Below are positions 24,031-27,909 of a stretch of DNA of 37,717 bases, piece by piece. A program made the translations under genes and the position numbers. Below the pieces are notes generated by a model. The model did no database searches, was not told the origin of the DNA, and worked only from the letters and a program-made list of their open reading frames with translations. Position 1 is the stretch's first letter, and each line of letters starts with the position of its first letter. This DNA is from a virus: positions 1 to 37,717 of the IMG/VR virus record IMGVR_UViG_3300045988_011290; one strand, given 5' to 3'.

Positions 24031-24318
24031 TTACACTACCCGGACGTAATCCGGGAACTCATCAGCGATCATGCAGATGCCGATAAAAAAGGAATCCACC
24101 AGAATTCTTGATTCTTCTGAAAGATTCCCATAATTTATATTCGCCCATCCGGGTGATATATCGTATTTAATATCGTCAGATGTCAATTCTTCTAGCGATC
24201 CAACCAACGTCTGAGTAAGCGCCGTGACTCCGGCACAAACGATATCATTGCCGTATTCGGCGTATTCGGCGTGACCATCAACCGTTATGCCGTCCGGTCT
24301 AACATTAACCTCTATCAT
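24031..24318 (-). CDS. prp: Prp-family cysteine protease (ribosomal-processing protease homologue, DUF464)
   Basis: 95 aa. VDGHAEYAEYGNDIVCAGVTAL has the GHA...D(I/L)VCA(A/G)V(S/T) His/Cys dyad with 12-residue spacing, as in bacterial Prp. Confidence 0.75.
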   Translation of the reverse strand: MIEVNVRPDGITVDGHAEYAEYGNDIVCAGVTALTQTLVGSLEELTSDDIKYDISPGWANINYGNLSEESRILVDSFFIGICMIADEFPDYVRVV

Positions 24319-24367
24319 TGCGTCTCCTACTGCCTGTTTATCTCATGCTCTAAATAGCAATCAAATT

Positions 24368-25021
24368 CTACACGATAATAGCCCGATAACCTTTTGATTT
24401 TAACTCGCGCACCAGCTTCTTCGCGTTAGCTTTAGATTTAAATGCACCAACCTGAACCCGGTAAATCTTACTACCTGCAGTCTGCGTCTTGGTAGATGTA
24501 GACGTACCCACCGAAGACAACCCAAACGCCTGAAGGATTCCCTTGGCAATATCATCCATCCTAGCATTAAAAGTTTTGGCATCACTTGCATTGGTGATGA
24601 AACCACACTCAATCAGTCGGTACGGATAGCCTTTTGCGGCTGCACGTTTCGGGTTCGCCAGATCCGTTCTGCCTACAACAATTTGAGATCTGCCTGGAAA
24701 GATAGCGGAGATCATTTTCGCCAGAGCGTTATCATACTGATCAGCTTTATACTTTCCATTGATAATTACGTGTCCGCCCCTTGCAGATGCTGATGCGCTG
24801 TCCATGTGAAGCTCAATGATCTGGTAGTCCTTTGGAATGCTTAATTTGCTGATGCCATTATCCGCATACCAATTGCGGCTCGTATCTGCAATTGTGACAT
24901 TGCTTCCGCCCAGCGCACCGATACGTGCTGCCAGCGCTCTCACTCGTTCAGCTTCTGTGTATCCATTTCCGGTCGCTCCCGGATCACCGGCACCATGACC
25001 GGCTATGATGAATAGATGCAT
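24368..25021 (-). CDS. N-acetylmuramoyl-L-alanine amidase (Amidase_3-like) with C-terminal SPOR domain; probable endolysin
   Basis: MHLFIIAGHGAGDPGATGNGYTE...ELHMDSA...ECGFITN pattern. C-terminal YRVQVGAFKSKANAKKLVRELKSKGYRAIIV is a SPOR repeat. ATG 25021 follows AAAGGAG. Confidence 0.8.
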   Translation of the reverse strand: MHLFIIAGHGAGDPGATGNGYTEAERVRALAARIGALGGSNVTIADTSRNWYADNGISKLSIPKDYQIIELHMDSASASARGGHVIINGKYKADQYDNALAKMISAIFPGRSQIVVGRTDLANPKRAAAKGYPYRLIECGFITNASDAKTFNARMDDIAKGILQAFGLSSVGTSTSTKTQTAGSKIYRVQVGAFKSKANAKKLVRELKSKGYRAIIV

Positions 25022-25193
25022 AACATACTCCTTTCTGTAAGATGTCGCACATAAAAAGAGAGCCATAACGACTCTCTTTGATTGCTCTGTTTATAATTGA
25101 CTCATTTTTACATTAAGAATTGTCAGAAGACCCGTAGGTCTTGCTCGTATCTCCATGTATTCACCTCTGCTAGTTCACTAAAGCCACATTTAG

Positions 25194-27614
25194 TTAATCA
25201 GTTGATGTTTTGACTGATGTCATTTCATCATAGGTTGTAGTTTCAGTGGAATCTGTAAGTAAATCATTTTTGATAAAACTACATTGGTTAAATAGTTTCC
25301 AATAATTCTTCGTACCACCCGCAATAATTGATGGATATACATTTTTTAATCCACCACAATTTTTAAGAATTAAGCAACATGGCATCGGTCTATCTTCATT
25401 TTGGCTCCTCACTTGAATGTTTAAGTTATCAAACAGGCAATCAATACATTCAATTACTGCGCCTTTTGGACAAAGACCTTCTGGCTCGTATCTTCCATTT
25501 ATCCAATCATAAGGATATGTGTTATCATGCCATTGAATACCAGCATCATTTTGCGAGTTTAGGAATTTGCAATCCTTAAAAGTGATATGTGAGAAAATAC
25601 TTCCACCCATGCCAATAACAGGACCATTCTTTGGTGAGTAATCTCTACCGTGCCAATCAAAAATACAATTTTCAATATAAGGTGTTGAAAGACAATTACT
25701 TTCAAAATGTAAGCAATATCTCAGATTAGTTCCAACAAATTTAAAACCTTTAATTACAGTATCAATAGTTTGAGAATTTATGTGGAAAAAGCATTTATTA
25801 GTACAAGTATCGTTACTTATAGTGTCATATCCAACGCCGCCGTCCCAAATAAAAATACATTTTTCCGGATTGTTACTTTGGGACTTATATGTTACATATG
25901 ATTTTGCAATAACACCTTGATAGTCAGAGCCGTTCTGACCTTTGTATTTTTCTTGCAAATCCGTATATGTTCCATCTGCTACAATAATTTCATACTTATT
26001 CTTTTCAGAAGCATTAGTAACAACATCATTTGCCTTTAATACGGTGGCGTATGGTTTTTCTTTTGTACCATTGCCTTCTGTATCACTTCCAGTTGTTGCC
26101 ACATAAATCTTGTTGATATGTATTTCACCAAGTTTATCATCTACTTCATCTTTTGTGTAAACTTCGCCTTTTGTGTAAACTTCATCCTTTGTGTAAACTT
26201 CTAACCTATCAACAAAATCTGTTTTACGATAAGATAAATTTTGCCTAAATTCACCAGATACAACATTGATACTCTCAATAGATGTATCTAATCCTCCTTT
26301 ATAAAAACTCAAGCAAAGATATTTTGCATCTGTTGGAATTTTATAAAATTCTGCAACTTTACTCGTTTGCGTATTGTGAATAACATACGTGCTTTCAACA
26401 GGTGTAAAAGTTCCATCATTATTAACATATCTTGAAGCCCAATCTTGAAATTCACCGTATACGACCAACTTATTGCCTTCTATAGGAATCTTTGCCGTAA
26501 TATAATTCTCATTTATTTCTTTGGTTTCTTTTTCTACTCCAATAAAGTTCCAATAATATCCATCAGTGACTTCACATTTTTGTATGATACTAACGGATGA
26601 TATTTTTTCAGATACTTTATTTAATTCGACTAAGTCTTCATTTAGCGAACTAATGTCGGCTTTATTCTTCGCAATCTGCTCAACATTTGCCTGTATTTGC
26701 TCAGCTGATCCAATTTGCTCTTTTAACGACGCGTCTACTGTATTCGCCTGTTTTACCGTGGCATCTAACGCTAACTGCTTCTCTCCAGCGGATCTAATGG
26801 ATCTGTCTAATGCCGTCTTAGCTTCTCCGGCTTTCCCAATTGATGTATCAAGCTCTGTCTTTGCATTCCCAGCCGACTGTACAGCCTTGTCCAGATTTCC
26901 TTTTGCATCCGTGGCATTGCTGATAGCACCGTCAAGCTCTGTCTTTTTTTCGGTTGCATCAGCTATGGACTGCTTGATGCTGTTCTGAGACTCTTCTGTC
27001 TGGCTATGGATCTTCTGCAACGACTCCACTGTCTTGCTTTCAATTCCTCTCAGTGCGCTTTCTCTTTCTATACCGATAGCTGAGATTGCATTATCTCTTG
27101 CCTTTTCTACGTCTCCTTTGCTTTTCCCGGCGCTCTCGGCATATTCCTTTGCTTTATCCGCTGATTCCTTTGCTGACTTTTCAGCTGCTTCAGCACGATC
27201 CGCAGCTGCATTTACCGCATTAACAGCATCTTTAAAAATGCTTGGATCTATACTTGGGTCTTCTGACGGGTCTGTAGGCTCTGGCCGTGACTCTACCGGA
27301 AGCTGAATCATATACTTCGTATTGCCGAACCCATCACCAGAAAGATACACAAATGCGTAAATTGTATAATCACTTGTTGCCCCTTTGTTTTGCAGTAGCT
27401 CGTTTGGGATCTGCACTGTAAGCAATCCATTATTGCTTGTTCCAATCCTGTCCAGTGTATGACCGCCGCTCTGTTTGAGCGAGAACTGCACCTCTGTCAC
27501 TTTCGAAAACTCTTTCCCAGCAATCCTCAACACCTGACCGTAATCATACTGCCATAGCTTTTGATCTCTCCTGGTGCTTCTGCCAGTTAATTCGATGTCT
27601 ATAATGTTATCCAT
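25194..27614 (-). CDS. Fibre-like structural protein: N-terminal anchoring domain, long coiled coil, C-terminal beta-helix-like (pectate-lyase-fold) domain; candidate receptor-binding protein or depolymerase
   Basis: ATG 27614 lies 2 nt after the upstream stop. There are roughly 190 residues of Ala/Lys/Glu/Ser heptads. The distal part has recurring hydrophobic-x-C-x-F-x-x-N turns (IENCIFDWHG, FKDCKFLNS, IECIDCLFDN, LKNCGGLKN, FNQCSFIKN) typical of parallel beta-helix repeats. Confidence 0.55.
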   Translation of the reverse strand: MDNIIDIELTGRSTRRDQKLWQYDYGQVLRIAGKEFSKVTEVQFSLKQSGGHTLDRIGTSNNGLLTVQIPNELLQNKGATSDYTIYAFVYLSGDGFGNTKYMIQLPVESRPEPTDPSEDPSIDPSIFKDAVNAVNAAADRAEAAEKSAKESADKAKEYAESAGKSKGDVEKARDNAISAIGIERESALRGIESKTVESLQKIHSQTEESQNSIKQSIADATEKKTELDGAISNATDAKGNLDKAVQSAGNAKTELDTSIGKAGEAKTALDRSIRSAGEKQLALDATVKQANTVDASLKEQIGSAEQIQANVEQIAKNKADISSLNEDLVELNKVSEKISSVSIIQKCEVTDGYYWNFIGVEKETKEINENYITAKIPIEGNKLVVYGEFQDWASRYVNNDGTFTPVESTYVIHNTQTSKVAEFYKIPTDAKYLCLSFYKGGLDTSIESINVVSGEFRQNLSYRKTDFVDRLEVYTKDEVYTKGEVYTKDEVDDKLGEIHINKIYVATTGSDTEGNGTKEKPYATVLKANDVVTNASEKNKYEIIVADGTYTDLQEKYKGQNGSDYQGVIAKSYVTYKSQSNNPEKCIFIWDGGVGYDTISNDTCTNKCFFHINSQTIDTVIKGFKFVGTNLRYCLHFESNCLSTPYIENCIFDWHGRDYSPKNGPVIGMGGSIFSHITFKDCKFLNSQNDAGIQWHDNTYPYDWINGRYEPEGLCPKGAVIECIDCLFDNLNIQVRSQNEDRPMPCCLILKNCGGLKNVYPSIIAGGTKNYWKLFNQCSFIKNDLLTDSTETTTYDEMTSVKTSTD
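26143..26201 (-). repeat. 18-bp in-frame tandem repeat x3.3 (EVYTKD/EVYTKG)
   Basis: acttcatcttttgtgtaa / acttcgccttttgtgtaa / acttcatcctttgtgtaa / acttc. It encodes EVYTKDEVYTKGEVYTKDEV inside the fibre gene. Confidence 0.9.
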
Positions 27615-27615
27615 A

Positions 27616-27909
27616 TCATTCACCCCTAAACATCTGAGGATTATCCTCAATAAACATATATAGCGCATTGCAAAGCCGCTCAATTTGTTCTTCGCTTAAT
27701 TCGATTTTATACATCTCGTCAAGGGCGTGTAAACACTCATGCATCAACGTAGCTTCTTTTGCTTCTTCCGTTATGTCTTCGCGTAACGCAATCTCTTGCT
27801 CAAGATATCTGATCTCCCCCTGCAACTCCACTTCGCTTTCATGCAGATTCTGCTCTTCCTTTACTTTGTAGTGTTTAAATCCCACTTTTACTTCTTCGCA
27901 TAATGTCAT
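27616..27909 (-). CDS. 97-aa HExxH-motif protein (possible minimal zinc metallopeptidase or fibre accessory protein)
   Basis: TLMHECLHALDE contains HExxH. It sits between the MuF-like gene and the fibre gene, tightly packed (1-2 nt gaps). Confidence 0.45.
   Translation of the reverse strand: MTLCEEVKVGFKHYKVKEEQNLHESEVELQGEIRYLEQEIALREDITEEAKEATLMHECLHALDEMYKIELSEEQIERLCNALYMFIEDNPQMFRGE

Follow-up and report, generated by a model that had tools for sequence, protein, structure and literature searches.

We analysed a stretch of viral DNA of 37,717 nucleotides (nt), the IMG/VR record IMGVR_UViG_3300045988_011290 from position 1 to 37,717, which is referred to here as the window. Between the MuF gene and the scaffold gene of its head module, at 24031-27909 on the minus strand, lie four genes that encode an HExxH mini-protein, a fibre-like protein, an amidase lysin and a Prp protease. 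A sequence-only reading had described them as one cassette of 3.9 kilobases (kb) inserted into the module. All four genes were found at these positions and on this strand, and their families were assigned by Pfam and PHROG; an NCBIfam scan added nothing to the gene identities. The genes of the locus are as follows (lengths in amino acids, aa).

27911-28849, minus strand: MuF, 312 aa (Pfam Phage_Mu_F, 78.5 bits; phrog_115)
27616-27909, minus strand: HExxH protein, 97 aa, with the motif HECLH (phrog_1233, annotated function unknown)
25194-27614, minus strand: fibre, 806 aa, from an ATG at 27614
24368-25021, minus strand: Amidase_3/half-SPOR lysin, 217 aa (Amidase_3, 66.6 bits; SPOR, 40.3 bits)
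24031-24318, minus strand: Prp (Peptidase_Prp, 77.2 bits, cut-off 27)
23279-23902, minus strand: scaffold, DUF4355, 207 aa (Pfam and PHROG; ribosome-binding site present)
22061-23263, minus strand: major capsid protein (phrog_544)

The fibre open reading frame (ORF), as delimited mechanically, starts at a TTG at 27683; with the ATG at 27614 as the chosen start, the fibre-like protein is real and its length is 806 aa, not the 807 aa first given. The lysin ORF likewise begins mechanically at 25066, and an AAAGGAG ribosome-binding site precedes the ATG at 25021. The scaffold most likely starts at the ATG at 23902; the gene caller also gives a 207-aa scaffold in relatives.

MuF relatives were gathered from IMG/VR and from representative genomes, and the window proteins were mapped onto their loci (L numbers below). 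Prp was directly upstream of the scaffold in every locus that had both MuF and Prp (113/113), and the distance from MuF to Prp ranged from ~0.7 to 5.5 kb. The MuF gene is the left anchor of this variable interval and Prp the right anchor, homology to all relatives resuming at 24366/24338, just upstream of Prp. The expectation of a scaffold gene right after MuF as the normal order therefore fails in this phage family, where the variable interval and Prp always stand between them.

The window MuF is a short form that ends ...EFEEWLRRQ, a linker where distant relatives run on into extensions. In relatives with 60-65% MuF identity the protein is longer (464 aa in L030, 730 aa in L153) and continues in frame into variable toxin-like domains, several of them with HExxH, followed by small ORFs. 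A MuF core with a variable C-terminal toxin and an immunity ORF is the architecture described for MuF polymorphic toxins (PMC5576092); a fused toxin with a small ORF was present in the distant relatives and absent from the window. Relatives at 60-67% MuF identity came from Dorea, Faecalicatena, Muricomes, Hespellia and Blautia (GTDB representatives). No close relative of the window's clade was found among the GTDB representative bacterial genomes, and none of the GenBank phages matched the 20-kb late region by megablast. At L030 (62% MuF identity) the MuF-Prp slot holds a 479-aa fibre-like ORF (12582-14021) without a BppU-like anchor, whose C-terminal motif, YTDxxGQxWxxDEIDLER, is common to a fibre encoded after Tal in L110; this ORF may represent an independent capture of a fibre by the interval.

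Prp is best read as a resident of the head module, its presumed prohead protease that would trim the scaffold and the capsid protein, and not as cargo, because it adjoins the scaffold in all loci, because cleavage motifs are present, and because of the spacing of its His and Cys residues. His16 (GH16AEY) is followed 12 residues later by Cys28 (DIVC28AG), the same spacing as between H22 and C34 of Staphylococcus aureus Prp, an enzyme that cleaves a motif found in ribosomal protein L27 as well as in the scaffold protein and the capsid protein of phage 80alpha (PMC9405229). The N-terminus of the window scaffold, MANLQLF'ADGDGG, is a Prp-type cleavage motif of the (D/N)LQ(F/L)F'A type, and the N-terminal region of the capsid protein contains another (...RLGLQAF'AAPNN). 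LQxFA motifs recur at the scaffold and capsid positions in relatives, and at the capsid N-terminus they were found in at least 74 of 99.

The HExxH gene also lies outside the fibre-lysin block, because it is an indel on its own and sits by Prp in phages that have no fibre. It behaves as a clean presence/absence unit (27632-27899) that is missing from the close relatives L092, L090 and L002, and homologues occur directly upstream of Prp in the distant fibre-less relatives L126, L129 and L147. Judged by sequence comparison, its ancestral place is next to Prp and it is independent of the fibre and lysin. The family comprises 962 cluster representatives, mostly stand-alone proteins of ~100 aa, in which H57 and E58 are invariant and H61 and E73 nearly so. 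Faint similarity to the M78, SprT and IrrE zincins suggests that the 97-aa protein is a putative minimal zincin; a comparison with PDB sequences gave nothing significant. The ratio of nonsynonymous to synonymous substitution rates (dN/dS) for this gene was 0.15-0.20. The 3.9 kb therefore do not form a single inserted cassette: Prp is part of the head module and the HExxH gene is a separate indel.

The variable block is thus the fibre and the lysin, at about 24367-27615. All close relatives found (MuF 97-98% identical or of the same 312-aa form, L229-L233) have a fibre and a lysin in the slot, in at least nine distinct configurations. The parts of the block are as follows.

27285-27614, minus strand: fibre residues 1-110, immunoglobulin (Ig)-like beta-sandwich anchor with a predicted BppU/FibL-type fold (AlphaFold2 and Foldseek)
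26631-27284, minus strand: fibre residues 111-328, predicted helix/coiled-coil shaft with the conserved end ...NKADISSLNEDL (AlphaFold2; homology stops at 26630)
25194-26630, minus strand: fibre residues 329-806 and stop, exchangeable C-terminus (G+C content, GC, 0.32 against 0.44 for the window)
25127-25193, minus strand: 67-nt post-fibre linker, present in both L089 and L092
24367-25126, minus strand: exchangeable lysin segment

The N-terminal 328 residues of the fibre are shared by the close relatives at 88-98% identity, with the HExxH gene present or absent. The fibre C-terminus comes in at least six versions in the clade, including a GDSL/SGNH-esterase tip in L230, and is replaced in L091, L092, L090, L007, L229 and L230. 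Three types of lysin occupy the slot: ELLD (L003, L004, L006, L008, L229 and L230), Amidase_2, and Amidase_3, the last with a half-SPOR domain in the window and in L005. In L007 a whole series of fibre, CBM5_12 protein, holin_4_1 and Amidase_2 lysin lies inside the head module. The order is clade-wide.

DNA comparison with the relatives placed the boundaries of exchange at 26630, 25127/25193 and 24366. At 26630, where homology to four relatives stops, the joint falls at the end of the coiled coil, and GC drops there; composition had been suggested as a guide to the boundaries of the cassette, and the drop does mark the fibre C-terminus, but it covers that part only. L089, which has the same fibre and another lysin, is homologous to the window down to 25127, and L092, which has the same lysin and another fibre tip, is homologous from 25193 on. 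The 67 nt between these positions are 92.5% identical to the post-fibre sequence of prophage L165, and 45 nt are common with L167. This linker is a probable recombination joint, as judged from the alignments. Because the breakpoints are sharp, tips are shared at >90% identity and the slot holds three lysin types, we conclude that its contents are exchanged between phages. All genes are under purifying selection (dN/dS 0.06-0.38).

A mobile cassette exchanged between phages had been one of the first suggestions; the exchange is supported, a discrete mobile element is not. Scans found no direct or inverted repeats flanking 24031-27909, and no recombinase gene in the block by Pfam or PHROG; a transposon-like or integron-like element was rejected on these grounds, the joints being regions of shared homology. 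A block with its own transcription signals was also rejected, as promoter-like and terminator-like sites were not above chance. A minus-strand hairpin of 9-10 base pairs with a U-run lies at ~25054-25083, 30-60 nt upstream of the lysin start and inside the lysin segment; it was not flagged by the consensus scan, and the surrounding 109-nt fold was not significant (z = -1.69). Most of the comparison material consists of metagenome assemblies, which could in principle favour an assembly chimera, but the same order occurs in more than 12 contigs from various samples and assemblers, with intact ORFs under purifying selection, and an artefact of this kind can be set aside almost entirely.

The AlphaFold2 model of fibre residues 1-200 has a beta-sandwich at 5-110 (predicted local distance difference test score, pLDDT, ~85-92) and then a long helix, continuous from residue 125, with the low pLDDT expected for a monomer model; weak Pfam matches of coiled-coil type cover residues 205-318. 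In Foldseek searches of the PDB, the anchor model matched the 80alpha baseplate (6v8i, E-value 2.6e-5), 9m8o (5.8e-5) and BppU of phage TP901-1 (4v96, 1.8e-3; 3uh8, 1.4e-2), with the NF5 baseplate also among the top matches. Matches in BFVD were mostly BppU-domain, baseplate and tail proteins, and one was a neck passage structure. On this modelling, the fibre most likely docks on the baseplate. PDB sequence searches with the fibre tip and with the anchor profile gave nothing significant. A word-indexed homologue search with the 135-aa anchor alone returned 8 proteins only; gene contexts were therefore gathered through the DNA loci.

The fibre C-terminus contains a beta-sandwich at ~348-453, three EVYTKD repeats and a beta-helix-like domain at ~498-778. 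The repeats correspond to three tandem 18-nt units at 26143-26201, encoding EVYTKD/EVYTKG/EVYTKD between the two domains. The AlphaFold2 model of this part is of moderate quality (mean pLDDT 65), and its Foldseek matches were weak: right-handed beta-helix glycanases (GH136, PL3 and PL6), CBM32 and a tail fibre of phage 7-7-1. The tip is a putative receptor module that may bind or cleave glycan; its dN/dS was 0.08-0.28. It is >90% identical in many unrelated phages and recurs in roughly 1000 proteins with differing N-termini (collagen repeats, BppU_N), among them P0112, which bears the same C-terminal module and on which PF10651 was found. Elsewhere, genes with this tip lie after TMP-Dit-Tal (TMP, tape measure protein), next to GH25 or M23 lysins. 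The tip has a GC of 0.32-0.34 in all carriers (the window, L082-L087, L093, L098 and L100), in backbones of 0.39-0.55. It looks like a recently and widely spread module, the target of which is maybe not host-specific.

The spread of nearly the same tip across backbones so different in GC would be odd for a host-specific receptor binder, and relatives have toxin-like and moron-like cargo in the slot. Both points fit a reading in which fibre and lysin are cargo expressed from the prophage and not part of the virion, a surface adhesin or glycanase with an autolysin, comparable to the MuF toxin and immunity cargo of the relatives. We consider this very unlikely, since the fibre sequence has no signal peptide or surface anchor, its N-terminal model has the fold of a baseplate anchor, no promoter or terminator signal above chance separates the block from the late genes, and no other lysin was found among the window ORFs scanned.

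Beyond the head genes, the window continues as follows.

Between the major capsid protein and the TMP, minus strand: connector and tail genes
16318-19353, minus strand: TMP
14753-16318, minus strand: Dit
12609-14756, minus strand: Tal
12288-12590, minus strand: 100-aa small membrane protein, directly after Tal
12021-12284, minus strand: Hol44-family holin, 87 aa (Phage_holin_5_2, 88 bits)
10462-12002: four ORFs (94, 182, 129 and 80 aa) after the holin, conserved, at the place of the lysin in other phages
9007-10128: integrase, after the four ORFs

The earlier description of a tail module without a fibre gene and a holin without a lysin was confirmed. The order is TMP-Dit-Tal-100 aa-Hol44, no fibre or lysin was found 3' of Tal or the holin in the window, and no peptidoglycan hydrolase domain was found in the other window ORFs scanned. 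All close relatives keep the series of Tal, 100-aa protein, holin, four ORFs and integrase, again without a lysin. Scans of Pfam, PHROG and NCBIfam type gave no family matches for the four ORFs 3' of the holin. Of the four, the 182-aa protein begins with a glycine-zipper-like stretch, and for the 80-aa one there was a sub-threshold rubrerythrin-like match. A cryptic lysin among these ORFs was considered and rejected: they have no family matches and look like glycine-zipper or membrane proteins and small acidic proteins.

Homologues of the window's fibre occupy the tail end in other phages. Prophage L165 has, in order, baseplate genes, the fibre, a 51-aa ORF, the 67-nt linker, a 92-aa membrane protein, the Hol44 holin and the lysin, followed by host DNA. 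Its identity to the window is 41% aa in the anchor, 86% nt in the coiled-coil end (the last 242 nt of the shaft), 92.5% nt in the linker, 98% aa in the holin and 91% aa in the lysin. Holin and lysin are adjacent at this canonical end; in the window the lysin has probably been separated from its holin. In Ruminococcus gnavus phage phiRg519T2, the protein with a homologous N-terminus is gp16, a tail fibre by annotation, whose gene stands between that of the Tal-like gp15 and those of the holin and the endolysin; this phage gave the single, weak match in a tblastn of the fibre against GenBank phages. L107, L109 and L110 have homologous connector, tail tube, TMP, Dit and Tal proteins (Tal 53-56% identical), with the fibre homologue directly after Tal, and in L110 the full series is Tal, a 121-aa protein, fibre, CBM5_12 protein, a 102-aa protein, holin and GH25 endolysin. 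L095 has TMP and, further on, a fibre with an anchor 67% identical to that of the window, followed by an ELLD lysin. The L095 homologue (9944-12321 of a 53-kb contig) consists of two ORFs that overlap, 9944-10792 and 10753-12321, a split that suggests a frameshift or a sequencing error.

A fibre gene after Dit/Tal is accordingly found in phiRg519T2, L095, L107-L110 and L165, and not in the window. Because homologues of the fibre N-terminus follow Tal or baseplate genes elsewhere, we conclude that the fibre has probably been relocated. The proposal that host-recognition and lysis genes had moved into the head block thus survives for the fibre and the lysin, whose homologues lie after Tal in other phages, but Prp and the HExxH gene were not part of the move.

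The lysin matches Amidase_3 well above the cut-off of 27 bits, over profile positions 2-171 of 174, and falls with the endolysin PHROGs 2742, 489 and 435; it is 67% identical to the annotated lysins of Clostridium phages CS266P1-4. Its description as an amidase-SPOR protein was correct for both domains, but at most 32 of the 76 SPOR positions are present (profile positions 2-32), a half-SPOR predicted to be a wall-binding tail. The lysins of L165, L166 and L167 have the same short ending, and those of L227/L228 a more divergent one. Truncation of the domain by the recombination joint at 24366 was therefore rejected: the half-SPOR is native, because lysins at canonical positions (L165-L167) end in the same way. 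The dN/dS of the lysin was 0.10-0.14. The order of 100-aa protein, holin and Amidase_3 lysin occurs in ~40 other viral contigs. In the window the only recognisable holin is the one at 12021-12284, 12 kb from the lysin, and from the gene orders we infer that the two are partners in this phage.

The explanation that we consider probable takes the stretch between MuF and Prp to be a slot for cargo, prone to recombination in this family of SPP1-like temperate siphophages with hosts of the Lachnospiraceae type; in this clade it would hold a relocated fibre and endolysin, the holin having been left after Tal. Most relatives have in the slot a variable toxin-like C-terminal extension of MuF with small genes, whereas this clade has a baseplate-type fibre with an endolysin. 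A tail-end block of fibre, accessory and lysis genes would have moved into the MuF-Prp hotspot in an ancestor of the clade, and the lineage of the window would have kept, or re-acquired, a holin after Tal. Fibre tips and lysins may then have been replaced piecemeal through short conserved joints, namely 26630, the 67-nt linker and the region upstream of Prp. With the late genes co-oriented, production of the fibre and the lysin would coincide with that of the head proteins. The fibre is predicted to trimerise through its coiled coil and to dock on the Dit/Tal hub by its BppU/FibL-like Ig domain, and its exchangeable C-terminal module may bind or cleave a glycan on the cell surface. The Hol44 holin, whose gene lies 12 kb downstream, would release the Amidase_3 lysin when infection ends.

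Several points weigh against this explanation, and some of them favour its alternatives. For the lysin, synonymous divergence (dS) between the window and L092, which uses the same slot, is 0.47, and between the window and L165 it is 0.43. Such similar values point to repeated replacement rather than one move, and they would suit an account in which nothing moved as a unit and the hotspot captured the fibre and the lysin separately, their adjacency being incidental. This account would also fit the independent exchange of tip and lysin at separate joints, the different lysin types among otherwise near-identical phages, and the many unrelated genes that the slot takes up. Yet the order of fibre, linker and lysin, including the 67-nt linker itself, is shared with the end block of L165 and partly with L167, L095 has the same pair of fibre and ELLD lysin at the tail end, the head slot of L007 contains the series complete, from fibre and accessory gene to holin and lysin, and the clade members all have both genes, none having only one of them in the slot. 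We therefore regard separate capture as unlikely, while giving it some weight.

The other points against concern the fibre. Pfam BppU_N (PF10651) gave no match on it at E <= 0.01, and its attachment to the tail is argued from a predicted fold (E-value 2.6e-5, template modelling score ~0.4-0.5) and from synteny elsewhere. The model of the tip is only moderately confident, its best fold match having an E-value of 6.5e-4 and the glycanases 8e-3 to 0.1. One of the BFVD matches of the anchor is a lactococcal neck passage structure (phage LP9207, E-value 2.8e-4), so that an anchor fold of this kind can also be located at the neck. Finally, a variant seen in L004/L097 and L231-L233 has an 87-aa fibre stub (P0121), then a 50-aa ORF and an ELLD lysin. 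Its head genes are intact, at least four independent assemblies from the human gut contain it, and its position is equivalent to 25194-27353 of the window. That the fibre is essential is thus not clear, and receptor binding may primarily be the task of the conserved Tal C-terminus; the variant weakens the claim that the fibre is the only receptor-binding protein. Either the fibre is an accessory, like FibU of 80alpha, and the Tal C-terminus does the binding, or the variant is a defective prophage.

An accessory, non-essential fibre, a neck-type match and a gene placed between MuF and scaffold within the head block are what would be expected if the protein were mounted on the neck, collar or capsid, in the manner of lactococcal neck passage structures, T4 whiskers or phi29 head fibres; a capsid-attached fibre had been one of the first suggestions. 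PDB matches of the anchor at E-values of 5.6e-3 to 4e-2 also include connector or neck proteins (9mt4, 9c39 and 8gtd), and in L030 the same slot is occupied by a fibre-like ORF without the anchor. The best structural matches, however, are peripheral baseplate proteins, those of 80alpha (6v8i), NF5 and TP901-1 (BppU), and this N-terminal resemblance to baseplate anchors speaks against a place on the capsid. Homologues outside the head block always follow Tal or baseplate genes and precede lysis genes, and the fibre travels with the lysin, and in L007 with the holin too, which is the make-up of a tail-end block. Since relatives carry unrelated cargo in this slot, little about the site of assembly can be read from gene position. 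We find a neck or capsid mounting improbable.

A more speculative view, which we offer as a long shot, joins several of these strands. The MuF-Prp interval would be a dedicated diversification locus tied to the packaging and head genes, in which gut Lachnospiraceae phages alternate interbacterial toxins with host-range-plus-lysis modules. The tip would then be a broadly useful binder or cleaver of glycans (mucin, dietary glycan or shared exopolysaccharide) rather than a host-specific receptor binder, carried on a dispensable and possibly neck- or head-proximal fibre.

Upstream of MuF, the late gene order of the window begins with the packaging genes.

31413-31871, minus strand: TerS, at the upstream end of the late gene order
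30161-31441, minus strand: TerL
28818-30161, minus strand: SPP1-type portal

Upstream of the terminase genes are a D12-class adenine methyltransferase-like gene and a PAPS-reductase-domain gene (31876-32976 and 35126-36022), the latter recurring at the equivalent position in L229. Within the TMP gene, GC reaches 0.52-0.54 at 16500-18000, and TMP identity ranges from 77% to 99% among otherwise near-identical relatives, which points to a second mosaic region. Residues 318-393 of the capsid protein match the C-terminal Ig-like domain of the S-layer protein SbsC (39.6 bits), which may be a built-in decoration domain.

The placement of these genes has consequences for annotation. Pipelines and host-range predictors that look 3' of Tal would miss both the receptor-binding protein and the lysin of such phages, and the 806-aa protein might be labelled a head protein by position. 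For phage evolution, the locus offers a clear natural case of module exchange at short conserved joints, with MuF toxin cargo and the swapping of fibres and lysins at a single hotspot. In engineering, the joints could be used as splice points to give a fibre a new target or to replace a lysin, in phages whose hosts are the hard-to-culture Lachnospiraceae of the gut. The low-GC tip module, present in about 1000 proteins, merits a study of its own.

A narrow full-text literature search found no described case of a fibre and a lysin between MuF and scaffold. The separation itself has parallels: the lysis cassettes of lambda and P22 precede the packaging genes, e and t of T4 are not linked, and the P22 tailspike gene stands apart from the other late genes. 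Holin and lysin, or a receptor-binding protein, can lie away from their usual neighbours and still function. A close counterpart is the canonical end block of fibre, holin and endolysin (L165, L110, L167 and phiRg519T2 gp16-gp20), whose parts are homologous to those of the window (anchor 28-54% aa identity). In the window, by contrast, the block is split, with the fibre and lysin 12 kb upstream in the head module and the holin after Tal.

The MuF toxin loci of temperate phages (Jamet et al. 2017, PMC5576092) share with the window the site 3' of the MuF core and an equally high variability, and the distant relatives fit their architecture. They differ in that the window MuF has no toxin domain and that the cargo is a fibre and a lysin, not a toxin/immunity pair. 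In the system of S. aureus Prp and 80alpha, L27 and the phage proteins gp46/gp47 carry the LQxF'A motif, as do the scaffold and capsid proteins of the window, and the His/Cys spacing of the protease is the same. Whereas 80alpha uses the Prp of its host (PMC9405229), the Prp of the window is encoded by the phage, in a gene just before those of its presumed substrates.

The N-terminal domains of the 80alpha fibres FibL (gp62) and FibU (gp68) are among the baseplate structures matched by the anchor, and FibU is dispensable for infectivity (PMC7048315), which parallels the natural stub variant of the window's clade. Like FibL, FibU and BppU (ORF48) of TP901-1, the window fibre combines an Ig-like N-terminus, a coiled coil and distal domains of receptor type, as far as the models go. 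It differs from them in having no BppU_N sequence match, in a gene that lies between MuF and Prp and not after Dit/Tal, and in a distal domain that is another module, a beta-sandwich with a beta-helix-like domain. The components are known ones, from the BppU-like fibre and the Amidase_3 lysin to head maturation by Prp, a MuF hotspot and mosaic exchange. The position of fibre and lysin between MuF and Prp is unusual, as is the unlinking of holin and lysin, and the arrangement is a case of phage gene shuffling of known parts, not a new kind of system.

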